In this document: positions 49,534 through 63,817 of the stretch, in pieces
Layout: every line of letters starts with the position of its first letter
Numbering within the stretch: the stretch's first letter is position 1
Source: an uncultured Gemmatimonadales bacterium
Lineage (GTDB): Bacteria > Gemmatimonadota > Gemmatimonadetes > Gemmatimonadales > GWC2-71-9
NCBI GenBank assembly: GCA_963777835.1
Contig: CAVZRK010000006.1
Span: 1,186,155 to 1,250,154 of the forward strand
Direction: 5' to 3'
Length of the DNA: 64,000 nt
Translations under genes and position numbers: made by a program
Notes under the pieces: model-generated
What the model was told of the DNA's origin: nothing
Seen by the model: the letters and a program-made list of their open reading frames with translations, nothing else
The model's database searches: none

Positions 49534-49606
49534 GGGGGCGTAGCTCAGTTGGGAGAGCGCGTGAATGGCATTCACGAGGTCAGGGGTTCGATCCCCCTCG
49601 CCTCCA
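49534..49606 (+). tRNA. tRNA-Ala (anticodon GGC)
   Basis: Manual cloverleaf: acceptor GGGGGCG/CGCCTCC with the G3:U70 Ala identity pair, anticodon stem CGTGA/TCACG, loop ATGGCAT, T-loop GGTTCGATCC. No encoded CCA. Confidence 0.85.
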
Positions 49607-49691
49607 CTCCCAGACAGGACCGGGTGGCGGGATGCGCTCGGAGCGGTTGCGCGAGGGCGGGGACTCGGCTAGACTCCCGTCCCTCGTCATT

Positions 49692-49764
49692 GCGGGAATA
49701 GCTCAGTTGGTAGAGCACAACCTTGCCAAGGTTGGGGTCGCGGGTTCGAGTCCCGTTTCCCGCT
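49692..49764 (+). tRNA. tRNA-Gly (anticodon GCC)
   Basis: Acceptor GCGGGAA/TTCCCGC, anticodon stem CAACC/GGTTG, loop TTGCCAA, T-arm GCGGGTTCGAGTCCCGT. No encoded CCA. Confidence 0.85.
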
Positions 49765-49780
49765 CTCCAGAGGAAAACGT

Positions 49781-49854
49781 CGCGGGGTGGAGCAGTCTGG
49801 TAGCTCGCCGGGCTCATAACCCGGAGGTCGTGGGTTCAAATCCCACCCCCGCTA
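49781..49854 (+). tRNA. initiator tRNA-fMet (anticodon CAT)
   Basis: CGCGGGGTGGAGCAG...GGGCTCATAACCC (three G:C pairs closing the anticodon stem), a 1:72 mismatch (C1 opposite T72) and T-loop TTCAAAT. Close to the E. coli tRNA-fMet layout. No encoded CCA. Confidence 0.85.
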
Positions 49855-49954
49855 TTCGGACGGACAGTCAGGGCAGACAGGGCAGTGAGGCCGTGAGACG
49901 TCGCTGGATGGCCTCCTCACCGCCGGTCCCGCTGCCTACTGTCCGTCTGAGTTT

Positions 49955-50028
49955 CGGGCGGTTAGCTCAGTTGGTTAGAGCGCCACGTTGACATCGTGGA
50001 GGTCACAAGTTCGAGCCTTGTACCGCCC
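49955..50028 (+). tRNA. tRNA-Val (anticodon GAC)
   Basis: Acceptor GGGCGGT/ACCGCCC, anticodon stem CCACG/CGTGG, loop TTGACAT. No encoded CCA. Confidence 0.85.
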
Positions 50029-50037
50029 ATGCAGTCC

Positions 50038-50111
50038 GCGCCCATAGCTCAATTGGATAGAGCATCTGACTACGGATCAGAAGGTTAGGGGTTCGAGTCC
50101 CTTTGGGCGCA
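50038..50111 (+). tRNA. tRNA-Arg (anticodon ACG)
   Basis: Acceptor GCGCCCA/TGGGCGC, anticodon stem TCTGA/TCAGA, loop CTACGGA. The 5' coordinate is uncertain by about 1 nt. No encoded CCA. Confidence 0.8.
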
Positions 50112-50123
50112 TAGTTGCAGGGA

Positions 50124-50197
50124 CGGGGCGTAGCGTAGCCTGGTAGCGCGCCTGCTTCGGGAGCAGGAGGTCGCCGGTTCAAATCCGGCCGCCCCGA
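50124..50197 (+). tRNA. tRNA-Pro (anticodon CGG)
   Basis: Acceptor CGGGGCG/CGCCCCG, anticodon stem CCTGC/GCAGG, loop TTCGGGA, T-arm GCCGGTTCAAATCCGGC. No encoded CCA. Confidence 0.85.
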
Positions 50198-50243
50198 TTG
50201 AAGGGATAAATCTCCGAGGATTTATCATCGTAGAGAGCGTCTC

Positions 50244-50317
50244 GGGTCCGTAGCTCAGTTGGATAGAGCGCTTGCCTCCGGAGCAAGAGGTCGCGCGTTC
50301 GAGTCGCGCCGGGCCCA
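50244..50317 (+). tRNA. tRNA-Arg (anticodon CCG), copy 1
   Basis: Acceptor GGGTCCG/CGGGCCC, anticodon stem CTTGC/GCAAG, loop CTCCGGA. No encoded CCA. Confidence 0.85.
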
Positions 50318-50362
50318 TTGAAGGGATAACCTCCAAGCATTTATCATCGTAGGGCGTGTCTC

Positions 50363-50436
50363 GGGTCCGTAGCTCAGTTGGATAGAGCGCTTGCCTCCGG
50401 AGCAAGAGGTCGCGCGTTCGAGTCGCGCCGGGCCCA
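50363..50436 (+). tRNA. tRNA-Arg (anticodon CCG), copy 2 (identical sequence)
   Basis: Same 74-nt sequence as 50244-50317, preceded by a similar spacer. Confidence 0.85.
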
Positions 50437-50498: not shown

Positions 50499-51653
50499 TC
50501 AGGCGGGGCGCGGTGCGATCCGGTCCTTCAAGTTCAGGAAGGGCCGCTCGATCGCATACCAAGATGCGATCGCGGCAAGCAGGGAAAGCCCGAGGACCAG
50601 GACGAGGTACAGGAACAGGCGCATGAGACGGCTCGGCGTGTCCTCCCCGCGTACCACATCGACGAGCACAGGCTCCAGCAGCTGGTGAATAGGCAGGTGG
50701 AACATGTACATCGCGTAGCTGTACTTGCCTAGCACACGAAGCCAGCCGGCGGAGAAGATGCGCTGGGTCGCCCGTGCTGCGGTCGATCCGCCAGCCACGC
50801 ACAGCAGGACAATGTACGCGGAGAGCATACTGATCACGCTCTGGCCGATCACCTGAACCGGGATCTCGGTCGAATTGAACCCCCGCTGAACGACTACGAC
50901 GACGAAGAGCCCCACCCCCGCCAGGATGGCCGCCGGTGCCTGCCAGCGGGCGAGCGCAGCTCGCCCGCCTGGGCTCCTTAGCAAGGCGGCGATCAGCGCG
51001 CCGGCGGCCAGCGCATCCCATCTGGCGACCGTGAACATGTAGGCGGAATACTCCGGCATTCCGGCGAGCCGCATCCCGAGGCGCAGCAGCGGCGTCCCCA
51101 AGATCATGAGGAGGGAGAGACCGATGACCCCGCGCCGGTTGAGCAGCAGAACTACGAGGGGCCAGACGAGGTAGAACTGCTCCTCGACGGCGAGCGACCA
51201 GAGGTGGGACAGGCCGGTGATCTGAACCTCGAACGGGGCCGCCCAGTTCTGGATGTAAAACCAGTACGGCCAGTGATGCAGCCGGACCATCTCGACCCAG
51301 GCCGGGCTCCACGCCACCAACGGGCCGACGAGGACTGTGAGCGCGAGAAATGCGTAGTAGAGAGGGAAGATGCGGAGCGTGCGGCGCAGGTAGAACGACT
51401 GGAAATAGCGCGCCTTGTGCCTGGTGTCGAGCAGGATACCCGTGATGAGAAACCCCGACAGGACAAAGAAGAGCTGCACTCCTACCCATCCCGCCGCCGT
51501 GCCGGCGCCGGCAAGCTTGAGGAGGAACTGCTCACTTTCCCCTGCGATCCAGCCGGCGTTGTGGAGGACGACAATGAGGATGGCGAAGCCGCGGACCCCG
51601 TCGAGGGGCAAGAGGCGCTCGTGGGACGAGGCTGGCGGCGTGCCCGCCGCCAT
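50499..51653 (-). CDS. acyltransferase family 3 (membrane O-acyltransferase, OafA/YrhL-like)
   Basis: ATG 51653 (MAAGTPPASSHERLLPLDGVRGFAILIVVLHN...VQLFFVLSGFLITGILL...YLRRTLRIFPLYY). Multi-TM protein. ATGA overlap with the upstream gene stop. Confidence 0.8.
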   Translation of the reverse strand: MAAGTPPASSHERLLPLDGVRGFAILIVVLHNAGWIAGESEQFLLKLAGAGTAAGWVGVQLFFVLSGFLITGILLDTRHKARYFQSFYLRRTLRIFPLYYAFLALTVLVGPLVAWSPAWVEMVRLHHWPYWFYIQNWAAPFEVQITGLSHLWSLAVEEQFYLVWPLVVLLLNRRGVIGLSLLMILGTPLLRLGMRLAGMPEYSAYMFTVARWDALAAGALIAALLRSPGGRAALARWQAPAAILAGVGLFVVVVVQRGFNSTEIPVQVIGQSVISMLSAYIVLLCVAGGSTAARATQRIFSAGWLRVLGKYSYAMYMFHLPIHQLLEPVLVDVVRGEDTPSRLMRLFLYLVLVLGLSLLAAIASWYAIERPFLNLKDRIAPRPA

Positions 51654-52348
51654 CAAGCGTTCACCCGGGACTTCACCTCGGCCCGCTTTCGGGCCGCGAG
51701 GGGGTACCAACTGAGGAACATCTCGGTGGCGAGCAAGGGGACCACCCACGAGACCCACAGGACAATGGCGGCCCGGTTGACACCGGGGCCGGCAGGCAGC
51801 GGATACTCGACGTACGTGTCGAGGCGGACGAAGACGAATCCGTTCATGAGGACCCAACTGCGCATCATGAACTGCCGGTGCGCCTCGAACCGCCGCCGGA
51901 TGGCCATGAGCAACGCCAGGGCGGTCACGGTGAAGAAGAGAAACGACCAGATAGCGAAGGGTGGCACGCACTCCGGGCAACTGTAGAAGCCGAGGCGAAA
52001 CATGGCGAGGCCGGAGGCGAGCGCACACACGACATAGAACCAACCGACCCCGCGATGAAATTTCGGCCAACGCTGGCGGATCCGGCCGCTGAACTGGATC
52101 GGGGCGACAATCAGGGCAAGGCTCGCGGTCAGGACGTGTGTGGCCAGCATGATCCGCTGGGGCCAGAACCGCCGGTATACGTCCTCAGTCCACTCGAGAT
52201 AACGAAGCGAATCGCGGACGAGGAAGGCAACCCCGAACAGGACAAGGAGCGTGAATCCTCCCCAGATCATGGCCGCCCGGCTCACACCGAGTGCCAGACT
52301 CAGCTGGCTCGGCGACGGGGGCGGCAGTCTAGCGGCGGATTGTGCCAT
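51653..52348 (-). CDS. DUF2306-like integral membrane protein
   Basis: ATG 52346-52348 (MAQSAARL...). About six TM helices with HVLTASLALIVAPIQFS and HRGVGWFYVV blocks reminiscent of DUF2306. Confidence 0.5.
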   Translation of the reverse strand: MAQSAARLPPPSPSQLSLALGVSRAAMIWGGFTLLVLFGVAFLVRDSLRYLEWTEDVYRRFWPQRIMLATHVLTASLALIVAPIQFSGRIRQRWPKFHRGVGWFYVVCALASGLAMFRLGFYSCPECVPPFAIWSFLFFTVTALALLMAIRRRFEAHRQFMMRSWVLMNGFVFVRLDTYVEYPLPAGPGVNRAAIVLWVSWVVPLLATEMFLSWYPLAARKRAEVKSRVNA

Positions 52349-52456
52349 GGCGGCATGTTCCTGTCTGGGGATGAAGGGCATGAAAGGTGCAGAATCTGTG
52401 CCAGTGGCGCCAGCGCCGCGACTCACCTTGAACGGAGCACGGGGGCAAACCCAGCC

Positions 52457-53860
52457 TTGACAGAAACGCCGGGGAGTAATCTCGCGAACTTCGCACGCCG
52501 CTTCCTCGGGGGCGTCGCCGGGACTTCGCTTGCGTTGCTGGCCTACGCCGCCATCCACTTCCAGTCCATCCAGGACCCTCGCGCCCTCTTCTGGTACGGG
52601 GTCGGGATGTGCGGCGTGCTTCTCGGCATCGTCGGGCGAATGCTGCGCCCCCCGGCCGGCATCGGGCTCGCGTTGGCCCTCGTGGCAAGCGCCTCTCTCA
52701 TTCTGGCCACCGAGCTGGTCGTCGAGGGCCTCCAACAGCGCCGCTCACGGCGGGATGCTCTCGCAATCGAGGTGCTCACCGGACGCAAGCGGGATTCACG
52801 CTCCGTCCCCGACGTAGTTCGTGACCTCCGCGCCTCCGGAGTACCTGCCGTCCCGTCAATCGTGCCGCAGGTGATGCTCGATGCCACCGCGCCCGAAACC
52901 CCGCGGAATCGTGCGTTCACCGCCCCGTTCATGCCGCTGGCGGGTGTCTCCCGAGCCGAAACGGTACAACTGTGCAACGAAGACGGCCGATACCACACGT
53001 ACGAGAGCGATCGTCACGGTTTCAATAACCCGAATGCCACCTGGGACGCGTCCGGTCCCAGACTCGTGCTCATCGGCGACTCCTTCACTCACGGGTACTG
53101 CGTCCCTTCGGACAGCACCCTTGCGAGCCAAGTGCGGAAGGTCTGGCCCGCCACCCTCAATCTTGGGACAGGCGGAAGCGGCCCGCTCGCCGAGCTGGCC
53201 ATCCTCACCGAGTACGGCATCGAGGCCAGGCCATCGGTGGTGCTCTGGATCTACTATGAAAACGACCTGCCAGACCTGGCACGCGAGCGGGGCTCCGCCC
53301 AACTGACGCACTACCTCGACCCAGGGCACAGGCAGGACCTCTCCGCCCGCCAGCACGCGATCGACTCGAGCCTTCGTCAGTGGATCGACCTCCGCTACGC
53401 CGAGACCGACGAGCCGAACGGACTCGCTCCACGCGTCAGTCTCCGTGGGCTCGTCACCCTCCGCTCGCTACGGGGACTGCTGGACCAGATCCGCAGCGGG
53501 GAGACTCGCGACCCCCGCGCGCAACTGCCCCTCTTCAGCGATGTGCTGAGGACCGCGAAGAGTCGATCGGAGGCGATGGGCGCCCGTATGGTCTTCGTGT
53601 TTCTGCCGCAGTGGGGCCGCTGCTTTTCCGTAGACCGGCTCCCGTTCGACGCCGCACGACCTGAAGTGCTGGCCGCGGCGAGTGACGCCGGCCTGCCTGT
53701 GATCGACCTGACTCCTGCGTTCGTCGGTCACGAGCGACGGGACCTGTTGTTTGCCCACGGCGACATGGGAGGCGCCCACTACAGCCCCCTCGGCTATCGG
53801 GTGGCTGCCTCCCTGATCCTAGAGGGACTCGACTCGCTGCAACTGCTTCCGGTCGACTGA
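52457..53860 (+). CDS. membrane-anchored SGNH/GDSL-type hydrolase (AlgX/OatA C-terminal-like)
   Basis: Three N-terminal hydrophobic helices, block I LVLIGDSFTHGY (GDS), GTGGSGP (block II Gly) and block V HGDMGGAHYSPLGY (DxxH). The start is uncertain (in-frame TTG 52457, with no ATG nearby). Confidence 0.55.
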   Translation: MTETPGSNLANFARRFLGGVAGTSLALLAYAAIHFQSIQDPRALFWYGVGMCGVLLGIVGRMLRPPAGIGLALALVASASLILATELVVEGLQQRRSRRDALAIEVLTGRKRDSRSVPDVVRDLRASGVPAVPSIVPQVMLDATAPETPRNRAFTAPFMPLAGVSRAETVQLCNEDGRYHTYESDRHGFNNPNATWDASGPRLVLIGDSFTHGYCVPSDSTLASQVRKVWPATLNLGTGGSGPLAELAILTEYGIEARPSVVLWIYYENDLPDLARERGSAQLTHYLDPGHRQDLSARQHAIDSSLRQWIDLRYAETDEPNGLAPRVSLRGLVTLRSLRGLLDQIRSGETRDPRAQLPLFSDVLRTAKSRSEAMGARMVFVFLPQWGRCFSVDRLPFDAARPEVLAAASDAGLPVIDLTPAFVGHERRDLLFAHGDMGGAHYSPLGYRVAASLILEGLDSLQLLPVD

Positions 53861-54172
53861 GATAGGGAGCGGGGCGCAGACGCCACAGATGGGGCGCCCA
53901 TCCGCGATGCCGGAGGGCCCGGTGGCCGGCCGCTCGAGGCCATCGGATGCTCGAGAAGGTCGGTAAGCACCTACAATTCAAATACTTGCGCCCGGATGAT
54001 GCGCCAATCACCGCGGCATCATAACCTTAGTGGGAATTCCTGGTCGTGTGGAACAGGCCAACTACCATCGGCACAGACATTGCTAAGTGGTTGTCCTCCA
54101 TGGCGAAACGCCCCCTCGGCTCACCGGGCGGGCATGTGCGCCGCAGGATCGTCCCTCTACCCCGGTAGGCCA

Positions 54173-55357
54173 ATGTCAGCGCCCAGCCAGATCGCCGCCC
54201 CTGACGGCCGCGAGCTCATCGCCCGAACCCGCCGCATCGCGACCGAGGTGGCCGCGAAGCATGCCGCCGACGTCGACGCCCAGGCCCGCTTCCCGAGCGA
54301 GACGTTCGCCGCCCTCCGCGAGGCGCGGGTGCTCTCCGCTCTCGTCCCCGTCGAACTCGGCGGCTCCGGCGCCTCGATGCGCGACCTCGTCGAGCAGTGC
54401 CTGATCCTCGGGCAGTCCTGCGGCTCGAGCGCCATGGTCCTGGCGATGCACCACATCCAGGTGGCCTGCGTGGTCCGCCACGCCCGCACCTCGCCGTTCT
54501 TCGAGGCGTACCTCCGGGAAATCGCCGACCGCCAGATCCTGATGGCCTCGATCACCTCCGAGGTGGGCGTCGGCGGCGACACCCGCTCGAGCATCTGCGC
54601 CATCGAGCGCGGCAATGGGCGGTTCAAGCTCGTCAAGGACGCCACCACGGTCTCCTACGGCGCCGAGGCGGAGGACCTCCTCGTCACCTGCCGCCGCGCG
54701 GCGGACGCCGCCGCGAGCGACCAGATCCTCGTCCTGATCCGGCCCGGCGACTACAAGCTCACGCTCAAGGGGAAGTGGGACACCCTCGGCATGCGCGGCA
54801 CCTGCAGCCCGCCGTTCGAGGTGGAGGCGGAGGGCCCCGAGGCGCAGATCATCCCCGGCTCCTTCGCGGACTCCTCGGCGCAGTCGATGGTCCCCTACTC
54901 GCACATCCTCTGGTCCGCGCTCTGGACCGGCATCGCGACCGACGCGGTGAACCGCGCCGCGGCGTTCGTTCGCGCCGCCGCCCGCAAGACGCCGGGCACG
55001 ATCCCCCCGACGGCCACCCGGCTCGCGGAAGTGTCGGTCATGCTCCAGGCGATGCGCAGCAACGTCATGGCGGCCGCCGCGGACTTCGACGCCCTGAACG
55101 ACGACCGCGAGGCGCTCAACACGATGGCGTGGGCGCTCCGGTTCAACAACCTGAAGATCGCCTCCTCGGAGGCGGCCCCGCAGATCGTCCATCACGCGCT
55201 GCAGATCATCGGCATCATGGGCTACAAGAACGACAGCCCCTTCAGCGTCGGCCGACACTACCGCGACACCCTCTCCGGCGCGCTGATGGTGGGCAACGAG
55301 CGGATCCTGGCCAAGAGCGCCTCGATGCTGCTGGTGGCCAAGGGCGACCAGGCCTGA
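54173..55357 (+). CDS. acyl-CoA dehydrogenase family protein
   Basis: ATG 54173. ACAD layout: N-terminal helical RFPSETFAALREARVLSALVPVELGGSGAS, middle beta domain TSEVGVGGDTRSS...FKLVKDATTVSYG and a C-terminal helical domain. Confidence 0.8.
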   Translation: MSAPSQIAAPDGRELIARTRRIATEVAAKHAADVDAQARFPSETFAALREARVLSALVPVELGGSGASMRDLVEQCLILGQSCGSSAMVLAMHHIQVACVVRHARTSPFFEAYLREIADRQILMASITSEVGVGGDTRSSICAIERGNGRFKLVKDATTVSYGAEAEDLLVTCRRAADAAASDQILVLIRPGDYKLTLKGKWDTLGMRGTCSPPFEVEAEGPEAQIIPGSFADSSAQSMVPYSHILWSALWTGIATDAVNRAAAFVRAAARKTPGTIPPTATRLAEVSVMLQAMRSNVMAAAADFDALNDDREALNTMAWALRFNNLKIASSEAAPQIVHHALQIIGIMGYKNDSPFSVGRHYRDTLSGALMVGNERILAKSASMLLVAKGDQA

Positions 55358-55362
55358 CGCGC

Positions 55363-56271
55363 ATGACCACCTACGACGCGACCGTGTTCTACGACGACCT
55401 GGTGCGGCATGGACTCGTCGTCCCCGCCGGCCCGCTCGGGGCCTTCGGACGAGGGCCGGTGTTCGAAGATGTGCTCGAGGCGATGGATGCGCTGATCGTC
55501 CGCACCGCCAAAGACGACGGGGTCGAGTCGATGACCTTCCCCCCGGTCATCGACAAGATGATCATCGAGCGCACCGGGTACATGGACTCCTTCCCCACCC
55601 TGTGCGGGGCGATCCACAGCTTCGTCGGGAACGAACGCGAGGCGCGCACCGTGTCACAGCAGATCGCCGAGGGGAAGCCCTGGGGCGGCGCGCTGCAGCA
55701 GACCGACGTCGTGCTCAACCCGGCCGCCTGCTATCCGTTCTACCCGACCTGCACCGGCACCGTCCCCGCCGGGGGCCGACATGTGACGATGCTCGCGTGG
55801 GTCTACCGGCAGGAGCCCTCGCTGGAGCCGACGCGCATGCGCTCCTTCCGGGTGCGGGAGTTCATCCGGATCGGGAATCCGGAAACGGTGGTCGCCTGGC
55901 GCGACCACTGGCTCGCACGCGGGGTGGAACTCCTGGAGTCGCTGGAGCTGCCGGCGAAGGCCGACGTGGCGGCCGACCCGTTCTTCGGCCGGGGCGGGAA
56001 GATCCTCGCCGCCGGCCAGATCGAGCAGAAGCTCAAGTTCGAGGTGCTGATCCCGGTCGTCTCCCTCGAGAACCCGACCGCCTGCTGCTCCTTCAACTAC
56101 CACCAGGACAAGTTCGGCTCGGCGTTCGACATCAAGCTCCCCGGCGGCGAGACGGCCCACTCGGCGTGCCTCGGCTTCGGCCTCGAGCGGGTGGTGATGG
56201 CGCTCTTCAAGACCCACGGATTCGACCCGGGCGCCTGGCCGCCCGGCGTCCGGAAGCGGCTCTGGCCGTGA
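55363..56271 (+). CDS. amino acid--[carrier protein] ligase (truncated class-II, SerRS-like aaRS homolog without tRNA-binding domain)
   Basis: Only 302 aa. Class-II motif 2 FRVREF (aa 162-167), motif 3 GFGLERVVMALF (aa 271-282), and a Cys123/Glu166/Cys269 triad positioned like the zinc site of methanogen-type SerRS. A PPTase and a carrier protein are encoded in the same operon. Confidence 0.7.
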   Translation: MTTYDATVFYDDLVRHGLVVPAGPLGAFGRGPVFEDVLEAMDALIVRTAKDDGVESMTFPPVIDKMIIERTGYMDSFPTLCGAIHSFVGNEREARTVSQQIAEGKPWGGALQQTDVVLNPAACYPFYPTCTGTVPAGGRHVTMLAWVYRQEPSLEPTRMRSFRVREFIRIGNPETVVAWRDHWLARGVELLESLELPAKADVAADPFFGRGGKILAAGQIEQKLKFEVLIPVVSLENPTACCSFNYHQDKFGSAFDIKLPGGETAHSACLGFGLERVVMALFKTHGFDPGAWPPGVRKRLWP

Positions 56272-57278
56272 CCAGGCTGCGCGTGATCCCCGGCCTGGCG
56301 GCCGCGGGGTATCAACGGCACGCCGTGCACGCCCCCGACCGCGACTGGGTCGAGCGGAACTGCTACGTGGACGTCATCATCGAGATGCTCCACGCCCTCG
56401 GACTGGAGCCGCTCGCCGCGCTGGGCGTCGCTGCCGCGATCGACTTCGAGGGCGACAACTTCACCTTCCTGAAGCCGAACCACGAGGATCTCCGCGTCCT
56501 CTTCGGCGTGGATGTCCAGGAGATGAACGTCTGGCTCCCGCTGATCGAGCACGCGCGGCATCACCTTGCCGAGGGGAAGTTCATCAGCACCGAGGCCGAT
56601 TCCTTCTGGCTGCCCGACACGGCCGGGACCGACTATCAGCGCAACCACGTCAAGTCCACTATCGTCCTCGCCGACCTCGACGAGGACGCCAAGCGGCTCG
56701 GCTACTTCCACAACGCAGGCTATTTCGAGCTCGAGGGGGCGGACTTCGACCGGCTCTTCCGCGTCGGTGCGGCGCCCGATCCGACCTTCCTCCCACTCTT
56801 CGCCGAACTGGTGCGGGTGGACCGGGTGGTCCGCCGGCCCCCCGGGGAACTGGCTCAGCTGGCTGCGGCACGACTCGGGGTGTCCCTGGGCCGCCGTCCC
56901 TCGACCAGTCCGGTGCGGCGATTCCAGGCGCGTTTCGAGCAGGACCTTCCGCGCCTGCAGGAGCTCGGCCTCGCGCACTACCACGCCTGGGCGTTCGCGA
57001 CGACCCGGCAACTCGGCGCCGCCGCGGAACTACTGTCCCTGCACCTGCGCTGGCTGGCGGACGCGGGAGGCCATGACGACCTTCGGCCGGCCGCGGACCG
57101 GTTCCAGGAGGTGAGCGGCCTGGCCAAGACCTTCATCCTCAAGGCGGCCCGCGCGGTGAACAGCAGGAAGCCGTTCGACGCGGCCCCCCTCTTCGACGAG
57201 ATGGCCGGCGCCTGGGACGGCGGCATGGCCACCCTCGACCATTGGGCCGCGGCCCAGCCGGCAGGGGCCTCCGCATGA
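56268..57278 (+). CDS. DUF1839 family protein
   Basis: GTG 56268 (GTGA overlap). HAPDRDWVERNCYVDVIIEMLHALGLEP...AIDFEGDNFTFLKPNHEDL...STEADSFWLPDTAGTDYQRNHVKSTIVL...LGYFHNAGYFEL matches my recollection of the DUF1839 signature blocks. Confidence 0.6.
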   Translation: MTRLRVIPGLAAAGYQRHAVHAPDRDWVERNCYVDVIIEMLHALGLEPLAALGVAAAIDFEGDNFTFLKPNHEDLRVLFGVDVQEMNVWLPLIEHARHHLAEGKFISTEADSFWLPDTAGTDYQRNHVKSTIVLADLDEDAKRLGYFHNAGYFELEGADFDRLFRVGAAPDPTFLPLFAELVRVDRVVRRPPGELAQLAAARLGVSLGRRPSTSPVRRFQARFEQDLPRLQELGLAHYHAWAFATTRQLGAAAELLSLHLRWLADAGGHDDLRPAADRFQEVSGLAKTFILKAARAVNSRKPFDAAPLFDEMAGAWDGGMATLDHWAAAQPAGASA

Positions 57279-57679
57279 AGCCGACGGGCACCTGGCGGGT
57301 GGGCATCGACCTGGTGCAGGTGAGCCGGATCGCCGAATCGCTGGAGCAGTTCGGCGACCGCTTCGTGCGGCGCGTCTTCACGGACGGCGAGATCGGCTAC
57401 GCCGCCAGTTCGCCAGCCAGCGCGCCGGAGCGCTTCGCGGCCCGGTTCGCGGCGAAGGAGGCGACGATGAAGGCGCTGGGCCTGGTGGAGGATCCCTGCG
57501 ACTGGCGCCATATTGAGGTCCTCCGCGCGCCCTCCGGCGCCTGCGAGCTGGCGCTCCATGGCAGGGTGCGCGAGGCGGCCACCCGGCTCGGGGCCGAGTC
57601 GTTCGCGCTCAGCCTGAGTCACGAGGGCGATTACGCCACCGCCGTCGTCATCACCACCATCCACGAGACCACGCCCTGA
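57275..57679 (+). CDS. acpS: holo-[acyl-carrier-protein] synthase (AcpS-type 4'-phosphopantetheinyl transferase)
   Basis: ATGA overlap. 134 aa with the VGIDLVQVSRI, FAAKEATMKALG and ALSLSHEGDYA blocks of AcpS. Confidence 0.8.
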   Translation: MKPTGTWRVGIDLVQVSRIAESLEQFGDRFVRRVFTDGEIGYAASSPASAPERFAARFAAKEATMKALGLVEDPCDWRHIEVLRAPSGACELALHGRVREAATRLGAESFALSLSHEGDYATAVVITTIHETTP

Positions 57680-57942
57680 TGACCGATTCGACCACCGCCG
57701 CCCGTACCGACAGCATCCGGCGCATCCTGAAGGAGCATGGGCGGCTGTCCGTGGACGCGGCCGAGCTCGCCGACGACGCCGACCTCTACCAGGCCGGCAT
57801 GACCTCCCACGCCAGCGTGAACGTGATGCTGGCGCTCGAGGGCGAGTTCGACGTGGAGTTCCCCGACCACATGCTCAAGCGCGGCGTGTTCGAGAGCGTC
57901 TCGGCCATCCGCTCCGCCATCGACGAACTCGTCGGGGGCTGA
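57679..57942 (+). CDS. dedicated carrier protein (PP-binding, 87 aa)
   Basis: TGATG overlap. DLYQAGMTSHASVNVMLALEGEFDVEF has an ACP-like helix II, with the candidate phosphopantetheine Ser43 (codon 57805-57807). Confidence 0.75.
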   Translation: MTDSTTAARTDSIRRILKEHGRLSVDAAELADDADLYQAGMTSHASVNVMLALEGEFDVEFPDHMLKRGVFESVSAIRSAIDELVGG

Positions 57943-57949
57943 CGGCATC

Positions 57950-60487
57950 ATGCGCGGCCGGGTGCGCGGGATCTCCGGCCACAGCGCCGAGCGGCTCGGC
58001 GCCCGCTGGGAACTCGCCTCCTGCCCGCCGGGGGCCTTCGACGACCCCACCCGGCTCGACTCCTCCCTCGAATGGATCGCCTGCGCCGGACCGATGACCG
58101 CGGCCGCCGCCCTGCGTGCCGCGGGGCGCTGGAGCCTCGACGGGGCTCCGCGCCGGTTCGACGGCGAGGACTGGTGGTACCGGACGCGGTTCGAGACGGC
58201 GCCAGCCGAGGCGGGCGAGCAGCTCTGGCTCTGCCTCGACGGACTGGCCACCGTCGCGGACGTCTGGCTGAACGGCCAGCGCCTCCTCTCCTCCACGGAC
58301 ATGTTCACCGCGCATGAGCGCCGGGTGGACAGCCTGGTCCGACCCGACAACGAGCTCGTCATCCGCTTTCACTCGCTCGACGCAGCCCTGTCGGCGCGGC
58401 GACCCCGCCCGCGCTGGCGGGCGCCGATGGTGGAGAACCAGCAGCTCCGCTGGTTCAGGACCACGCTTCTGGGCCGGACGCCCGGTTGGTCCCCGCCGGC
58501 GGCCGCCGTCGGCCCGTGGCGGGAGGTGCGCCTCGAGCGGCGGCAGGGTGTCACCGTCAGCGACGTGCGAATCCACACGACGATGGAGGGTGTCCTCGAC
58601 CTCTCCTGCCAGGTGGACGCGATCGATGGCCCTGCCCCGAGGGCCGTTTCGGTCATCCTCGACCGGAACGGGCGGGAACATCGCACGCAGTTGGCGGCCG
58701 GAACCACTGCCGGGCTTTTCCGGGGACGGTTGTCGGTGCCTGCGGCGGCCCAATGGTGGCCGCATACCCACGGCGATCCGGCGCTGTACTCGGCCCGGCT
58801 CGAGATCGCCGTGGGCAAGAGCGCGGTCGCCGTGGACCTCGGTTCGACCGGCTTCCGGACGGTGTCACTGGACTCGACGGACGGGGACTTCGCGGTGAAG
58901 GTGAACGGCGTGCCGGTCTTCTGCCGGGGCGCCTGCTGGACGCCGCTTGACCCTGTCTCGTTCGACAACGAACCAGGAGCGCTCGCACAGGCCTTCGACC
59001 AGGTGGTGGACGCCGGCATGAACATGCTGCGTGTCGGCGGGACGATGGTCTACGAATCCGACTCGTTCCTCGACCAGTGCGACCGCCGCGGGGTCCTGCT
59101 CTGGCAGGACTTCATGTTCGCGAACCTCGACTATCCCGAGGACGACGCCGCGTTCGTCGAGCAGGTGTCCCTCGAGGCCCGCCAGCAGCTGGCCAGGCTC
59201 CAGGGGCGGCCGTCGCTTGCCATCCTCTGCGGCAACAGCGAAGGGGAGCAGCAGGCCGCGATGTGGGGGGCGGAGCGGGCCCGGTGGTCGCCGGCGCTGT
59301 TTCACCAGCACCTGGCCGCCGTGTCCCAGGAGCACGCGCCCGCCACGCCATACTGGCCCTCCTCGGCGCACGGGGGGACTTTTCCGCACCAGGGGAACGC
59401 CGGGTCGACCTCCTATTACGGCGTCGGCGCCTACCTGCGCCCGCTGGAGGACGCCCGGCGCGCCGAGGTGCGATTCGCCTCCGAGTGCCTCGCGTTCGCG
59501 AACATCCCGGAGGAACGCTCCCTCGCGCACCAGCCCGGGGGAGCAGGCATCAAGGTGCATCACCCCGAATGGAAGTCGCGGTCGCCGCGCGACCTCGGCG
59601 CCGGGTGGGACTTCGACGACGTACGCGACCACTACCTGGCGCGGCTCTTCGGCGCGGACCCGGTGGCACTCCGGTATGGGGACCACGAGCGCTACCTGGC
59701 GCTCGGGCGCGTGGTGACCGGCGAGGTGATGGCGCAGACCTTCGGCGAATGGCGGCGCCGGCGCTCGCCGACGCGGGGCGGGCTGGTCTGGTTCCTTCGA
59801 GACCTCTGGCCCGGCGCGGGGTGGGGCGTGGTGGACGCCACCGGCGTGCCGAAGGCGGCGTGGCACTACCTGCGGCGTGCGCTGGCTCCGGTGTCGCTCC
59901 ATCTGTCCGATGAGGGCGGCAACGGCCTCGGCGTGCACCTGGTGAACGACACCGGCGACACGATCACCGGCGAGCTCTCCCTGACCCTGTGGCGCGCCGG
60001 CGAGGTGCGCGTGGGGCACGGGACGATGCCAGTCGCGGTGCCGACCCGGGGCGCGATCGAGCTCAATGCCGGGGAGCTCTTCGAGGAGTTCCGCGACCTT
60101 TCGTACGCCTATCGCTTCGGCCCGCCGGCGCACGACGTGGTAGCCGCCGCCGTCCGGAACGCACAGGGGCAGGAGATTGCGCGAGCCTTTCACTTCACGA
60201 GCGGGTATCCAACCGCACGCGAGCTCGACGTCGGGCTGGCGGCGGAGGTTCGGCCCCTCGGCGGGGGCGACTTCGAACTCTCCGTCAGGACTCGGCGGTT
60301 CGCCCAGTCGGTGCACGTGGACGTCGAGGGGTACGATTGCAGCGACAACTACTTCCACCTGGCACCGGGGGAGAGCAGGTCGCTGCGGCTGACGCCAGGC
60401 AAGGGCGCGGATGCCAGCCGTCCGACGCCCCGCGGATCGGTGCGCGCCTTGAACGCCGAAACGGCCGCCAAGGTGACCAGCGCTTGA
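57950..60487 (+). CDS. glycoside hydrolase family 2-like protein (beta-mannosidase / exo-glucosaminidase-like)
   Basis: 845 aa. N-terminal sugar-binding domain with WWYRTRFE and VWLNG, and a TIM-barrel region FCRGACWTP...GMNMLRVGG...LLWQDFMFAN...ILCGNSEGEQ (acid/base-like NSE). Confidence 0.65.
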   Translation: MRGRVRGISGHSAERLGARWELASCPPGAFDDPTRLDSSLEWIACAGPMTAAAALRAAGRWSLDGAPRRFDGEDWWYRTRFETAPAEAGEQLWLCLDGLATVADVWLNGQRLLSSTDMFTAHERRVDSLVRPDNELVIRFHSLDAALSARRPRPRWRAPMVENQQLRWFRTTLLGRTPGWSPPAAAVGPWREVRLERRQGVTVSDVRIHTTMEGVLDLSCQVDAIDGPAPRAVSVILDRNGREHRTQLAAGTTAGLFRGRLSVPAAAQWWPHTHGDPALYSARLEIAVGKSAVAVDLGSTGFRTVSLDSTDGDFAVKVNGVPVFCRGACWTPLDPVSFDNEPGALAQAFDQVVDAGMNMLRVGGTMVYESDSFLDQCDRRGVLLWQDFMFANLDYPEDDAAFVEQVSLEARQQLARLQGRPSLAILCGNSEGEQQAAMWGAERARWSPALFHQHLAAVSQEHAPATPYWPSSAHGGTFPHQGNAGSTSYYGVGAYLRPLEDARRAEVRFASECLAFANIPEERSLAHQPGGAGIKVHHPEWKSRSPRDLGAGWDFDDVRDHYLARLFGADPVALRYGDHERYLALGRVVTGEVMAQTFGEWRRRRSPTRGGLVWFLRDLWPGAGWGVVDATGVPKAAWHYLRRALAPVSLHLSDEGGNGLGVHLVNDTGDTITGELSLTLWRAGEVRVGHGTMPVAVPTRGAIELNAGELFEEFRDLSYAYRFGPPAHDVVAAAVRNAQGQEIARAFHFTSGYPTARELDVGLAAEVRPLGGGDFELSVRTRRFAQSVHVDVEGYDCSDNYFHLAPGESRSLRLTPGKGADASRPTPRGSVRALNAETAAKVTSA

Positions 60488-62266
60488 GCGCTGCCACAGC
60501 GGCGGCGCCGCAATTGCCCCGCGCCGAGTTCCTGTACTTCGGCCCGCCAGATCGCCCCCTCCTCGGCTGGCTGCACCGGCCACCCGGTGACGGCACCCAG
60601 CGCTCGACCGGCGTCGTCATCTGCAACCCGTTCGGTTACGAAGCGCTGTGTGCCCACCGAAGCCTGCGGCACTTCGCCGAATCGGCGGCGGCTCTCGGAT
60701 ATCCGACGCTGCGGTTCGACTACGACGGGACGGGGGACTCGGCGGGAGAGGACCTGGATCCCGATCGATGGGGCGCGTGGCAGCGGAGCGTGCACCATGC
60801 CGTGGATGCGCTGCGCCGCGAAGCCGGGGTGGATTCCGTGTGCCTGCTCGGCGTCCGGCTCGGCGCCACCATCGCCGCGCTGGCGGCCGCCGATCGCGAG
60901 GACGTGACCGGGCTCGCGGTCATCGCCCCGGTCGTGAACGGCAGGGCGTGGCTGCGCGAGGTGCGGGCCCTGCAGGCGGCCATGGGCCGTGCCGAGCCCC
61001 CGCCGGAGCTGGCCCTTCCCGACGGCGTCACCGAGAGCATCGGGCTCCTGCTGAGTCCGGAGACCCGCGAAGCCATCGGCGCAGTCGACCTGGCGGCGCT
61101 GGACCGGCCGCCCGCCGCCGTCTGCCTGGTCATGGACCGCGACGACCGCGCCCCGAGCGAGGCCTGGTCCGCACGGATGCAGGAACTCGGCGCCCGTGTC
61201 GAGGCCGGGGTGCTGCCGGGGTACGTCGAGATGACGCTCGACCCGCACGAGGCGCGAGTGCCCGGGCAGATGGTGTCGCGCTTCGCCGACTGGCTGACCA
61301 CCCGATTCCCTGCCCTGCGCGCGGAGCGCTTCGTGCCGCCGGCGGCCGGACCCAGCGGGCCTGTGGAGACGGCGCCGGGCGTGGTGGAAAGCGCGCACTT
61401 CCTCGACGGGTCGAGCCGGCTCTTCGGAATCCTGACCGCCCCCACCGCCGCGACCCCCACGCGCGCGATCCTCCTGCTCAATTCAGGCGCCAATCACCAC
61501 ATCGGCAACGGCAGGATGTACGTGAAGTTCGCCCGGAGGCTGGCCCGGGAGGGATGGCTGGTCCTGCGGTACGACGTCTCCGGAATCGGCGACAGCGCGC
61601 CGCATCCGGGCGCTCCCGAGAACGACGTGTACACCTCCTTCGCCGTGGGCGATCTCGCAACGGCGATCACGTTCGTCCGGAATCGGCCGGGCGTCAGTCG
61701 CGTCGAGGTGACCGGACTCTGCTCCGGCGCCTATCACGGATTCAAGGGCGCGGTGGCAGGGCTGCCGATGGACGGCGTGACCGTGGTCAATCCGCTCGTG
61801 TTCTTCTGGAAGGAGGGGATGTCACTCTCATATCCTCCCTTCCAGATGGTGCAAGCCGCGGCGCAGTACCAGCGCTCCGCCTTGCAGGCCGAGAAGTGGC
61901 TCAAGCTGTTCCGGGGCCAGGTGGCGCTGCGGCCGATCATCGAGGTGATGGCCCATCGCGCGGCCGACCGCCTGGCCGGGCTCGCGAGGAACCTCCGACG
62001 CTCGATCGGCCTGCCCCCGAGCGAAGATCTCGGCGGCGAACTGCGCGGCGTGGTCGAACGGGGAACGGCACTCCGGTTCGTCTTCTCGGTCGGTGACCCG
62101 GGAGAAGCGCTGCTTGCGAGTCGGTGCGGGGTGGGTCCTGCCGCGACTTCGGCGGCGCGGCCGCATCCCGATCGCCCACCTGCCAGGGTGCGATCACAGC
62201 CTCTCGTCCGCCTGGATGCACGAATTGTTGTGGCGGGAGCTCGTGCGGGGACTGGAGCAGGCGTGA
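60484..62266 (+). pseudogene. fusion of two alpha/beta-hydrolase-fold domains (resembling exosortase-associated hydrolase 2 + hydrolase 1), frame disrupted near 62115
   Basis: TTG 60484 (TTGA overlap). Domain 1: VVICNPFGYEALCAHRS...FDYDGTGDSAG...LLGVRLGA. Domain 2: ILLLNSGANHHIGNGRMYVKFARRLA...YDVSGIGDS...TGLCSGAYHG. After ...VGDPGEALL the sensible sequence RVGAGWVLPRLRRRGRIPIAHLPGCDHSLSSAWMHELLWRELVRGLEQA-stop lies in the +1 frame. The span is 1783 nt, and removing 1 nt gives 594 codons. Confidence 0.55.
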
Positions 62267-62961
62267 GGCAGGTCGAGGAACGGATCGCCGGGCTCCGCAC
62301 CATCGTCGTGCAGGTGGCCGAGGCGCCGCGCGTCGCCGTGATCGTCCTGCACGGGTACGCGATGCGTCCCGAGGACCTGGCGCCGTTCGCGGGGTCGATG
62401 GGCGCGCCGGGAGTGTTCTACCTGCCCGAGGCGCCGCTCGACGCAGAGGTCGAGGGACGTGCGTGGTGGCCGATCGACCAGGAACGCCGTGCGGCGGCGA
62501 TGGCCATCGGACCCCGCGACCTGGCCGAGGAACATCCGGCGGGAGCGGGGGCGGCCCGGGCGCTGCTCGGGCGGATCATCGAGGAGGTCGAGCGCCGACA
62601 CGCCGGCTGCCCGCTGGTGCTCGTCGGGTTTTCCCAGGGGGGGATGCTGGCCTGCGACACGATACTCCGTGACCGCCCGCGCGTGGCGGGATTGGCGCTC
62701 CTGTCCGCCTCCCGCATCTCGGCCGACGAATGGGCGCCACTGACCGGGGCACTTGCGGGGCTCCCGATCCTGGTGAGCCACGGCACCCACGACCCCGACC
62801 TGGGCTTTCACGCGGGGGAGCGATTGCGCGAGATGTGCGTCGCCGCAGGCGCAGAGGTGACGTGGGTTCCGTTCGAGGGAGAGCACGGCATCCCGCTCGT
62901 CGTGTGGCGGGCGTTGCGGAAGTTCATCGCCGGCGTGTCCGGTTTGCCGCCTACCCCTTGA
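62263..62961 (+). CDS. phospholipase/carboxylesterase-family alpha/beta hydrolase
   Basis: GTG 62263 (GTGA overlap). VIVLHGYAMRPEDL, nucleophile elbow GFSQGG and VSHGTHDPDL (His) fit the esterase triad layout. Confidence 0.7.
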   Translation: MRQVEERIAGLRTIVVQVAEAPRVAVIVLHGYAMRPEDLAPFAGSMGAPGVFYLPEAPLDAEVEGRAWWPIDQERRAAAMAIGPRDLAEEHPAGAGAARALLGRIIEEVERRHAGCPLVLVGFSQGGMLACDTILRDRPRVAGLALLSASRISADEWAPLTGALAGLPILVSHGTHDPDLGFHAGERLREMCVAAGAEVTWVPFEGEHGIPLVVWRALRKFIAGVSGLPPTP

Positions 62962-63817
62962 GGAAGATCGTCCCGTAGCGCCGATCACGGTCCGCGGCCA
63001 GCGCCCAGTACGGCTCACAGCCATAGTAGTAGTCCCACCAGTTCGCCGCGATGTGGCGCCGCGAATACTCATAGATTTCCCTGCCCTTGTAGCCGAGCGG
63101 TTGCAGACCTGCGGCCCGCGTCAACTCCACCCGCATGTCCAATTCCATCCCATCGAGGAAGAGCACCGAGCGCGGTTTCATCGTGGCGATCGCGTTGGCG
63201 AAGGCCTTTCGGGCCAGCGGGGGTGGCATGTGAAACAACACGTTCTGGAGGAAGACGATGTCAGCCTGTGGCATGTGCGCGACCAGCGTGCCATCGAGCA
63301 GGTCAGCCTGCTCGAATGCGACTCTCTGCCGGAGCGCAGGCTTGACCACCCACGCATCCCCCGCCGCATCGAAGGTTTGCTGCACGAAAGCAGCCGGCAA
63401 CCCGGGCCCCTGCGCCAGCTCCTCGGACGAGTAGGTTGCCAGGCGCGCCTGTTGGACAGTGTGGGCATGAAGATCCGAAGCCCGGATCTGCCACCGCAGC
63501 GTCGGCCGACGGTGTGCGAGCTCGCTTGCGACGGTGTATGCCTCGGCGCCGTTGGAACAGGCAAAGATGTTGATCTGGATCGGGCCGGAGTCCGCCCCTG
63601 TGTCAACATGCTGGAGCGCGGGGCCGACCAAGGCCTCGAGCTGGACAGGCGAGCGGAGGAAGCTGGTGTAGGTGTGATTATCCACGCGGGTCGCGACTTG
63701 CAGCAGGCGCCTGTGTCGCATCCGCCCGTAGGGAAGCAACGCCACGCTGCCCAGGACCTTCGACCGGAAGTAGCCCGGCAGGCGGGCGAGGATGTGGCGG
63801 AGGTCACGGCGAGGCAT
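62951..63817 (-). CDS. CheR-type SAM-dependent methyltransferase (orphan)
   Basis: TSFLRSPVQLEAL, INIFACSNGAEAYTVA, IRASDLHAHTVQQARLATYS and DIVFLQNVLFHM parallel the CheR blocks (FFR, WSAGCSTGEEPYS, ATDI...A..G.Y, RNVLIYF). Confidence 0.65.
   Translation of the reverse strand: MPRRDLRHILARLPGYFRSKVLGSVALLPYGRMRHRRLLQVATRVDNHTYTSFLRSPVQLEALVGPALQHVDTGADSGPIQINIFACSNGAEAYTVASELAHRRPTLRWQIRASDLHAHTVQQARLATYSSEELAQGPGLPAAFVQQTFDAAGDAWVVKPALRQRVAFEQADLLDGTLVAHMPQADIVFLQNVLFHMPPPLARKAFANAIATMKPRSVLFLDGMELDMRVELTRAAGLQPLGYKGREIYEYSRRHIAANWWDYYYGCEPYWALAADRDRRYGTIFLKG

Follow-up and report, generated by a model that had tools for sequence, protein, structure and literature searches.

A DUF1839 protein of an aminoacyl:carrier-protein ligase operon in an uncultured Gemmatimonadales bacterium as a candidate carrier-protein-dependent aminoacyl transferase

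The window analyzed here is a stretch of 64,000 nt from the genome of an uncultured Gemmatimonadales bacterium (assembly GCA_963777835.1, contig CAVZRK010000006.1, positions 1,186,155–1,250,154 of the forward strand) with a G+C content of about 70%. It contains a tightly packed operon, which begins after a 310-nt gap of lower G+C content and in which a gene for a protein of the DUF1839 family lies between the genes for an aminoacyl:carrier-protein (aa:CP) ligase and an AcpS-type 4'-phosphopantetheinyl transferase (PPTase). The predicted fold of this protein, its conserved residues and its gene context suggest that it is a cytoplasmic acyl transferase of the BtrH/AsbE/CtaG/CcbD class, which depends on a carrier protein and acts through Cys32, and we put the probability of this reading at about 0.6.

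The DUF1839 gene and its operon

The genes of the operon and the features of the DUF1839 protein are listed in Table 1. The open reading frame (ORF) of the DUF1839 protein was translated into 336 aa with zero internal stops. Its GTG start shares the letters GTGA (56268–56271) with the stop codon of the ligase gene, and its stop codon shares ATGA (57275–57278) with the ATG of the PPTase gene. Thus, the first-pass annotation of the window, made from the sequence alone, was correct in placing a 336-aa DUF1839 ORF between these two genes and overlapped by both. The start codon is credible because homologues of equal length align from residue 1. Residues 12–324 matched positions 2–312 of the 313-position PF08893 (DUF1839) profile, that is, the whole domain, with an E-value of 9.9e-97 and a score of 324.4 bits against a gathering cutoff of 22.5. 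The nearest relatives of the protein are encoded in Gemmatimonadales/Gemmatimonadota genomes. The family is large: a word-filtered protein search gave more than 3,000 matches, and 880 clusters were obtained at 50% identity.

The product of the gene upstream of DUF1839 scored 389.7 bits with the NCBIfam model NF005479 (equivalog cutoff: 357) and was aligned over residues 22–298 with the seryl-tRNA synthetase (SerRS)-like ligase Bll0957 (PDB 4h2w/3mey; E-values from 1e-75 to 3e-75). The gene for the cognate carrier protein overlaps the stop codon of the PPTase gene by 1 nt, and Ser43 of this protein (codon 57805–57807, in G-M-T-S-H) is the phosphopantetheine site according to its position in the motif. 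A SerRS-like ligase above the equivalog cutoff and an adjacent cognate carrier protein together identify the locus as an aa:CP ligase system. The other genes include those for a flavoenzyme with the acyl-CoA dehydrogenase (ACAD) fold, a glycoside hydrolase of family 2 (GH2) and two alpha/beta hydrolases.

Table 1. Genes of the operon and features of the DUF1839 protein (positions in the window, nt)
Feature	Position	Strand	Evidence and remarks
ACAD-fold flavoenzyme, first operon gene	54173..55357	+	Pfam Acyl-CoA_dh_N/_1/_2; ATG at 54173
aa:CP ligase, class II SerRS-like core without tRNA-binding domain	55363..56271	+	NF005479, PDB
DUF1839 protein, 336 aa, proposed carrier-protein-dependent aminoacyl transferase	56268..57278	+	PF08893, AlphaFold2 model, Foldseek
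Motif W27-V-E-R-N-C32-Y-V-D35, residues 27–35	56346..56372	+	Cys32 codon 56361–56363, proposed nucleophile
H127-V-K129-S130, end of flexible loop/start of strand 129–138	56646..56657	+	Conservation, hhalign
His148, end of strand 143–147 (model DSSP), candidate general base	56709..56711	+	Kept in 93/94 homologues
C-terminal helical domain, residues 192–329, six helices, invariant R247/R295	56841..57254	+	AlphaFold2 model
AcpS-type 4'-phosphopantetheinyl transferase	57275..57679	+	PF01648, E 6.5e-19; TIGR00556
Carrier protein, 87 aa	57679..57942	+	PF00550; NF005480, 106.9 bits (cutoff 72)
GH2 beta-mannosidase-like glycoside hydrolase	57950..60487	+	Pfam GH2 domains; PDB beta-mannosidases, E 6e-61 to 1e-57
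Two-domain alpha/beta hydrolase, read in two frames here	60484..62266	+	Pfam Hydrolase_4, Abhydrolase_1
Abhydrolase_2 protein (phospholipase/carboxylesterase family), approximate start	62230..62961	+	PF02230, E 7.6e-12

Predicted fold and solved structural relatives

A model of the DUF1839 protein was built with AlphaFold2 on 64 homologues and had high confidence (predicted local distance difference test score of 91, predicted template modeling score of 0.91). It consists of two domains, a papain-like domain (residues 1–183) and a helical domain (residues 192–329). Cys32 opens the helix 32–43, which is the first helix of at least four residues. According to the DSSP analysis of the model, an antiparallel sheet spans residues 82–183 (strands 82–86, 105–111, 129–138, 143–147, 152–156 and 179–183). 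A nucleophile cysteine at the N-terminus of a helix together with an antiparallel sheet is the arrangement of the papain-like fold. The sole internal stretch with low confidence was the loop 111–130, ahead of the long strand.

A Foldseek search against the PDB revealed 12 matches with E < 1e-3, all of them to AziU2/U3, CtaG or CcbD (probability 1.00, template modeling (TM) score 0.52–0.60). The top match was AziU2/U3 (E 1e-6, TM-score 0.59), followed by CtaG (E from 6e-6 to 2e-5, TM-score up to 0.60) and CcbD in complex with its peptidyl carrier protein (PCP; E 5e-4, TM-score 0.54). The next PDB match was found only at E 0.08, and the classical papain-like proteins IdeC, phytochelatin synthase, AvrRpt2 and GtgE were among the weaker matches below this gap. 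The model and the Foldseek matches bear out the papain-like placement of DUF1839, which the first-pass annotation had given, and a 2023 classification paper independently places DUF1839 among the papain-like folds. The fold class to which these relatives belong is specialized for carrier-protein-tethered substrates, and the majority of the members studied are amide-forming transacylases. Since the relatives of the DUF1839 fold act on such tethered substrates, the proposal of a transferase, also made in the first-pass annotation, is supported.

Conserved residues and the active site

Conservation was evaluated in an alignment of 94 full-length DUF1839 representatives with 32–57% identity to the query. 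In the motif around Cys32, the residues W27 (85 of the 94 sequences), E29 (75), N31 (85), C32 (93), Y33 (76) and D35 (94) are conserved. In the block WVERNCYVD, which had been described as invariant-looking, these six positions are conserved and V28, R30 and V34 are variable, so the family motif is W-x-E-[TS]-N-C-Y-x-D. Further along the sequence, H127 is kept in 93/94 homologues, K129 in 91/94 and threonine or serine at position 130 in 91/94; Y146, D111 and D117 are also near-invariant. Conserved acidic residues are numerous (E85, E109, D111, D117, D138, D159 and E180), and R247 and R295 in the C-terminal half are present in 94/94 sequences.

As in transacylases of the BtrH/AsbE/CtaG/CcbD type, a conserved cysteine, namely C32, occupies the catalytic position. 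Its near-invariance, its place as the first residue of the helix 32–43 in the model and its low-confidence alignment with the N-C pair of a BtrH_N protein support the assignment of the cysteine of NCY as the probable nucleophile. The partner of this cysteine appears to be unusual. In the 2023 paper, the DUF1839 site is described as C(T/S)H, with the His and Thr/Ser positions swapped and with a conserved Asp in the preceding loop, and this signature is present in the protein from the window as C32, S130 and H148. To judge from the alignments, Ser/Thr130 apparently sits where the canonical His would be, with the near-invariant His127 and His148 on either side. His148, in or near the canonical Asp/Asn slot, is a candidate general base according to the published model. 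The papain-like fold sought in a structural model was found; a canonical Cys-His dyad is not evident from the sequence.

The apparent absence of the canonical His, as well as the position of AziU2/U3 as the single best Foldseek match, would suit an enzyme that does not transfer acyl groups, i.e., one catalyzing an elimination or a cyclization as AziU3/U2, or a non-catalytic carrier-protein chaperone; AziU3/AziU2 are described as similar to CtaG in structure but unrelated to it in function. We regard this as very unlikely, since a near-invariant cysteine at the nucleophile position together with two near-invariant histidines and an invariant aspartate is hard to explain without covalent catalysis.

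The relation to BtrH was assessed at the sequence level. The Pfam model BtrH_N (PF14399) had no match to the DUF1839 protein even at E 10; nevertheless, when the 94 DUF1839 members were scanned, BtrH_N was the one Pfam family besides DUF1839 itself to which more than two of them gave matches (7/94, weak matches, best E 0.043). The DUF1839 profile was compared using hhalign with a small family built around a BtrH_N + DUF4872 protein from a Bacillus cluster (see below); searches with this seed, as a single query and again with a profile, gave a set of only four sequences. The comparison resulted in E 1e-3 and a probability of 20–22%, which is low because the BtrH_N profile holds four sequences. 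In the confident block, residues 88–128 of DUF1839 are aligned with residues 76–114 of the BtrH_N protein, with the pairs D111–D99, L115-P116/L103-P104, Y123–Y109 and H127–H113. Greedy extension of the alignment was collinear over both proteins, with low confidence outside the block. It pairs N31-C32 with N13-C14 and, also at low confidence and as a gap-free continuation of the block, S130 with H116 of the BtrH_N protein, in which the spacing from H116 to the following Asp is 16 residues, the same as in CtaG. The kinship with BtrH suggested in the first-pass annotation is therefore upheld in part: BtrH has been reported as a structural homologue of CtaG and the N-C motifs can be aligned, but a BtrH_N match in Pfam is lacking. 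DUF1839 would work like BtrH without belonging to the Pfam family BtrH_N.

Gene context in related loci

The context of DUF1839 was surveyed in 80 genome loci, those with the highest similarity to the query (54–79% identity), which belong to Gemmatimonadota, Gamma- and Betaproteobacteria (Pseudomonadota), Myxococcota, Acidobacteriota and Abditibacteriaceae. The aa:CP ligase gene was found directly upstream of DUF1839 in 78/80 loci, and the ACAD gene in 73/80, always immediately before the ligase gene. GH2 was present in 70 loci, the carrier protein in 65 and the PPTase in 46; several of these absences coincide with contig ends. ACAD, ligase and DUF1839 form a fixed trio, and the placement of the [PPTase]-CP-GH2 block varies (downstream, upstream or divergent). 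In 51 of the 64 loci with room downstream, GH2 is succeeded by the gene for the two-domain alpha/beta hydrolase, and the Abhydrolase_2 protein gave tblastn matches in 38/84 loci.

Seven annotated plasmid loci from Rhizobium, Azospirillum, Burkholderia, Mycetohabitans, Caballeronia and Phyllobacterium, with 36–42% identity, contained the same core of acyl carrier protein (ACP), ACAD, ligase and DUF1839. An annotated GH2/beta-mannosidase gene comes immediately after this core in five of them, accompanied by an alpha/beta hydrolase in three, and GH2-like sequence was detected with tblastn in the other two (a remnant in the R. leguminosarum locus). With a ligase gene immediately before DUF1839 and a carrier-protein gene also in 7/7 of these distant loci, DUF1839 is encoded together with a stand-alone carrier protein and its loading enzyme, and the co-occurrence with aa:CP ligases expected in the first-pass annotation was confirmed. 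The locus in the window is an ordinary member of a widespread module. Note that three metagenomic gene calls (P0134, P0141 and P0174) join the C-terminal part of the ligase to DUF1839 in a single ORF. They represent either genuine "Rosetta stone" fusions or frameshift artefacts at the 4-nt ligase/DUF1839 overlap; the latter is possible because the two genes overlap in different reading frames and each of the calls is truncated, and these calls were given no weight.

The fixed order of the trio across phyla and the translational coupling of DUF1839 to the ligase and PPTase genes bear on another reading, namely that of a peptidase or amidase which acts on protein, peptidoglycan or lipoprotein and is merely co-regulated with the carrier-protein genes. 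The papain-like fold would allow such an activity, and "fatty acid/phospholipid protein processing" as well as the processing of cell-wall glycans was proposed by the authors of the 2023 paper. However, the structural neighbors are carrier-protein enzymes, with classical peptidases at E > 0.07, and the N-terminus, judged by eye from the translation and not with a prediction tool, is without a signal-peptide-like hydrophobic stretch. Taken together with the gene order, this makes a peptidase very improbable.

On the symbiosis plasmid of Rhizobium gallicum (L085, 218–13529), the genes ACP-ACAD-ligase-DUF1839-GH2 are located immediately between nifDKENX-fdxB and the gene for 1-aminocyclopropane-1-carboxylate deaminase. 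This placement next to nif genes hints at a role in a plant-associated lifestyle. In two Ramlibacter loci (L047, 1791–5333; L056, 5421–8963), DUF1839 abuts a divergent GH2 gene, with no ACAD, ligase, PPTase or carrier-protein gene within the flanks. It looks as if the block was deleted relative to other Burkholderiales loci, or the genes lie elsewhere in the genome.

Ligase systems without DUF1839

Among plasmid records, DUF1839 was found in 65 and ligase homologues in 103. Both searches listed eight proteobacterial genera; the two counts agree in seven of these, the exception being Rhizobium (16 ligase and 18 DUF1839 records), and the surplus ligase records belong to Streptomyces, Bacillus and Priestia.

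A Priestia megaterium plasmid (L089, 7160–15707) carries an AcpS-ACP-ACAD-ligase cassette, with a ligase of 38% identity and without DUF1839 or GH2. The cassette is followed by genes for a drug/metabolite transporter (DMT) family protein, an ATP-grasp amide ligase, an alpha/beta hydrolase, the alanine permease AlaP and an alanine racemase. Thus, an amide-forming enzyme of another kind takes the place of DUF1839 and GH2, and the neighboring alanine genes hint at an alanine-derived product. This ATP-grasp ligase would need a free carboxylate and, consequently, a release step in the Priestia variant, which is relevant to the possibility that DUF1839 is a thioesterase, with Cys32 accepting the (modified) aminoacyl group and water releasing the free acid for other enzymes. 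Papain-like enzymes are mostly hydrolases, the acyl-enzyme chemistry would be the same as in transfer, and the remainder of the module is rich in hydrolases. On the other hand, the characterized CtaG, CcbD/LmbD, BtrH and AsbE all transfer to an amine and not to water; the two alpha/beta hydrolases of the module could already serve as thioesterases, and the Priestia variant has its own alpha/beta hydrolase for the release. A thioesterase is accordingly considered unlikely.

In Bacillus mycoides and three further Bacillus genomes, a carrier-protein gene is followed by a gene for a SerRS-like protein of 393–401 aa, which has 29% identity to the ligase from the window and Bll0957 as its best PDB match. 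These two genes share an operon with genes for two BtrH_N proteins. Thus, a second, independent lineage of ligases resembling aminoacyl-tRNA synthetases (aaRS), with its carrier protein, is coupled to a canonical-triad cousin of DUF1839. The clusters of the Bacillus cereus group (L090, 5450–9918; L092–L094, 8001–12525) comprise two BtrH_N paralogues, a Pyr_redox flavoprotein, an 80-aa carrier protein and the ligase homologue, and appear to be uncharacterized. In L092–L094, the cluster is located near genes for proteins similar to beta-ketoacyl-ACP synthase III (KASIII), an aminotransferase and an AMP-binding enzyme. L090 likewise has genes of the KASIII-like type and one for an aminotransferase, with no AMP-binding gene within the examined stretch.

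A plasmid of Streptomyces sp. NBC_00557 (L091, 6410–11231) encodes a 3-hydroxyacyl-CoA dehydrogenase, a PCP, an ACAD, a ligase homologue (397 aa, 31% identity) and an acyltransferase. This cassette adjoins nonribosomal peptide synthetase (NRPS) and polyketide synthase genes. In the zwittermicin pathway, a cassette of this kind oxidizes seryl-ACP to aminomalonyl-ACP. The Streptomyces genes resemble such an aminomalonyl-ACP extender-unit cassette, in which an aaRS-like ligase would replace the usual adenylation enzyme. Cassettes of the aminomalonyl type provide a precedent for the action of an ACAD-fold enzyme on a carrier protein with a bound aminoacyl group.

Comparison with characterized enzymes

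CcbD/LmbD, the condensation enzymes of lincosamide biosynthesis (PDB 7YN2, 7YN3 and 9DKS), offer the closest analogy to the chemistry proposed for DUF1839. These enzymes transfer proline from a carrier protein via the catalytic Cys to the amine of an amino sugar, with a Cys-His-Glu triad and a ping-pong mechanism. They share with DUF1839 the combination of a papain-like and a helical part and, as proposed, an aminoacyl thioester donor on a stand-alone carrier protein. The differences are the canonical triad of CcbD, whereas in DUF1839 Ser/Thr apparently occupies the His slot, the loading of the CcbD carrier protein by an NRPS-type adenylation enzyme instead of an aaRS-like ligase, and a sequence identity of about 18%. 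CcbD binds its carrier protein through Arg residues located in the C-terminal helices. By analogy, the C-terminal helical domain of DUF1839 is proposed to be the docking surface for the carrier protein and a wall of the substrate chamber.

CtaG, the ligase of closthioamide biosynthesis (PDB 9QUZ and others), described as a "protease-like ligase", also acts by a ping-pong mechanism via an acyl-enzyme, with the triad Cys11/His128/Asp144. Like DUF1839, it contains an N-terminal domain of about 180 residues, in which the Cys opens the first helix, and a bundle of helices at the C-terminus. Its flexible entrance loop 105–127, which precedes the strand with the catalytic His, corresponds to the low-confidence loop 111–130 of DUF1839. 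It differs in its residues Cys11/His128/Asp144, in the transfer between two carrier proteins and in its sequence, which is 11–12% identical to that of DUF1839. Because CtaG is among the top structural matches and joins units between two PCPs, DUF1839 could also be thought to join an aminoacyl-S-carrier protein to the amine of a second one, producing a short peptide on the carrier protein. The free alpha-amine of the donor could be the acceptor, and the discoverers of the aa:CP ligases, in the words quoted in the 2010 note discussed below, suggested a link to non-ribosomal peptide synthesis. Nevertheless, one carrier-protein copy per related locus was found in the tblastn search with the carrier protein from the window (additional carrier proteins were not searched for), while CtaG needs two distinct carrier proteins in a defined order, and the conserved GH2 partner would stay unexplained. 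Such peptide formation is, in our estimate, rather improbable.

The authors of the CtaG study name AsbE, BtrH and MllDE as structural homologues with carrier-protein-bound donors. BtrH of the butirosin pathway takes an aminoacyl-type group from an ACP and attaches it to an amine of an aminoglycoside. In the BtrH_N + DUF4872 proteins, the N-C and D-x-F-x-L-P...Y-x-x-x-H blocks can be aligned with DUF1839; the difference is that BtrH_N proteins keep His in the canonical slot and that the DUF1839 protein has no match to the BtrH_N model. AsbE of the petrobactin pathway, which has a canonical triad, acylates spermidine with the group carried by the carrier protein AsbD; its donor is an aryl compound. 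According to the 2023 paper, DUF6005 is a remote homologue of DUF1839 with the same helical bundle, and the gene order given there indicates that AsbE is probably a DUF6005 protein. AziU3/AziU2 (azinomycin; PDB 8GS1 and 7WUW), although the best Foldseek match, differ in the reaction, which is aziridine formation.

The AlmEFG and DltABCD systems charge a small carrier protein with an amino acid, which is subsequently transferred to a glycolipid or polymer of the cell envelope. These systems are functional analogues of the DUF1839 module, with both the loading and the transfer enzymes from unrelated families.

Proposed function

In the proposed mechanism, the AcpS-type enzyme would prime the 87-aa carrier protein, as is suggested by the families of both proteins, and the aa:CP ligase would load a small amino acid onto the phosphopantetheine thiol, an activity shown for the orthologue Bll0957. 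The ACAD-fold flavoenzyme, which presumably modifies the aminoacyl-S-carrier protein, may oxidize the tethered aminoacyl group. The loaded carrier protein would dock on the basic face of the helical domain of DUF1839. By homology to CtaG and CcbD, Cys32 would then attack the thioester to give an aminoacyl-S-enzyme. An amine, or perhaps a hydroxyl, of the second substrate would attack the acyl-enzyme and leave with the aminoacyl group, completing a ping-pong reaction. The base would come from His127 and/or His148, with Asp35 or Asp117, in a variant active site.

Our best guess for the acceptor, made by analogy, is a cationic, sugar-derived amine, because the GH2 partner is intact and conserved, acidic residues are conserved in DUF1839, and CcbD and BtrH acylate amino sugars. 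A more specific version can be put forward tentatively: the rearranged Cys/Ser-Thr/His site may put a small amino acid, possibly modified by the flavoenzyme, onto a mannose- or glucosamine-type sugar, which would give an as yet undescribed aminoacyl-glycoside produced or remodeled within the cell; the pathway would operate in soil bacteria of at least five phyla and be encoded on rhizobial symbiosis plasmids. We consider this version possible but doubtful.

Several observations weigh against DUF1839 being an acyl transferase of this class. The best structural match, AziU2/U3, does not catalyze acyl transfer, and the canonical catalytic His is apparently replaced by Ser/Thr, as indicated by the low-confidence alignment and the 2023 paper. 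PDB sequence searches with the protein, the full-length family profile and a profile of the N-terminal domain alone found nothing relevant, so that the homology to solved structures is visible by fold only; similarly, the low hhalign probability gives weak sequence support for homology to BtrH_N. The module comprises three hydrolases, namely GH2 and the two alpha/beta hydrolases, and lacks both a glycosyltransferase and an exporter; in this composition it looks as much catabolic as biosynthetic. In addition, the two Ramlibacter loci keep DUF1839 and GH2 without a nearby ligase or carrier protein, and the searchable literature contained no biochemistry on any DUF1839 protein.

The idea of a transferase is not new in print. 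In a 2010 note added in proof, Aravind and colleagues linked the SerRS-like ligase to an ACP, a redox enzyme, "a highly conserved uncharacterized protein" and a glycosidase, and predicted that the ORF Atu2574 forms an amide bond to the amino group of a cell-surface sugar. In the 2023 paper, the same gene neighbors are listed for DUF1839. The two sources together suggest that Atu2574 is a DUF1839 protein. The aa:CP ligases were discovered in 2010 (Mocibob et al.), and a 2022 review still calls the role of carrier-protein loading unknown. This agrees with the first-pass annotation, in which the acceptor step was named as the unknown one in these systems; the same transferase role had, however, been predicted in 2010 for the adjacent ORF Atu2574. 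No experimental test of the transferase role was found in the 2010 note, the 2023 paper or the searchable literature.

Four points are added here to these predictions: the structural link to enzymes solved in 2022–2026 (AziU3/U2, CtaG and CcbD), two of them with proven ping-pong mechanisms; the breadth and rigidity of the ACAD-ligase-DUF1839 trio across phyla; the Bacillus clusters joining a second ligase lineage to BtrH_N; and the displacement by an ATP-grasp ligase in Priestia. If the transferase reading is true, DUF1839 is the missing step of a widespread aa:CP ligase pathway, and this pathway could be reconstituted in vitro with five soluble proteins whose genes are neighbors in the window. 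It would also add an active-site variant, possibly without the canonical His, to the protease-like carrier-protein-dependent amide synthases, a class defined only recently. The module is common: it occurs in a number of phyla, and plasmids of Rhizobium, Azospirillum, Burkholderia and Mycetohabitans carry it as well, once beside nif genes.

Other genes of the operon and its surroundings

The nearest solved structures of the flavoenzyme are true ACADs and the amino-sugar N-oxygenases DnmZ, KijD3 and ORF36, all with E-values from 1e-12 to 1e-15. As the dehydrogenases and N-oxygenases score alike, the flavoenzyme may have either type of chemistry. Both catalytic Glu residues of GH2 are kept in the glycoside hydrolase, where GNSE and ASEC align with GNNE and MSEF of BtMan2A.

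The two-domain alpha/beta hydrolase homologue from the related locus L001 matched frame 1 at 60511–62130 and then frame 2 at 62072–62254. This frame change (62072–62266) results in one long ORF (59989–62961) running into the next gene, and it is either an assembly indel or a real frameshift/pseudogene. The Abhydrolase_2 gene matched its L001 homologue at 62284–62928. Greedy non-overlapping neighborhood clustering of the related loci gave no glycosyltransferase, transporter or other new recurrent partner. Consensus scans of the region 53700–63200 revealed no sigma-70-like promoter, and terminators were found at chance level only.

About 3.7 kb upstream of the operon lies a cluster of eight tRNA genes (49534–50436, + strand), namely Ala-GGC, Gly-GCC, Met-CAT, Val-GAC, Arg-ACG, Pro-CGG and two tandem Arg-CCG. 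The operon is also preceded by genes for an Acyl_transf_3 (AT3, acyltransferase 3) membrane acyltransferase (50499–51680, − strand), a DUF2306 membrane protein (51653–52300, − strand) and a protein weakly similar to GDSL/SGNH proteins (52400–53860, + strand; below the Pfam cutoff). These three genes were not among the recurrent families in the neighborhood clustering. Pairs of AT3 and SGNH proteins are typical of glycan O-acylation. On the other side, a gene for a protein with a CheR-type S-adenosylmethionine-dependent methyltransferase domain (62951–63817, − strand; PF01739, E 2e-24) converges on the end of the operon.

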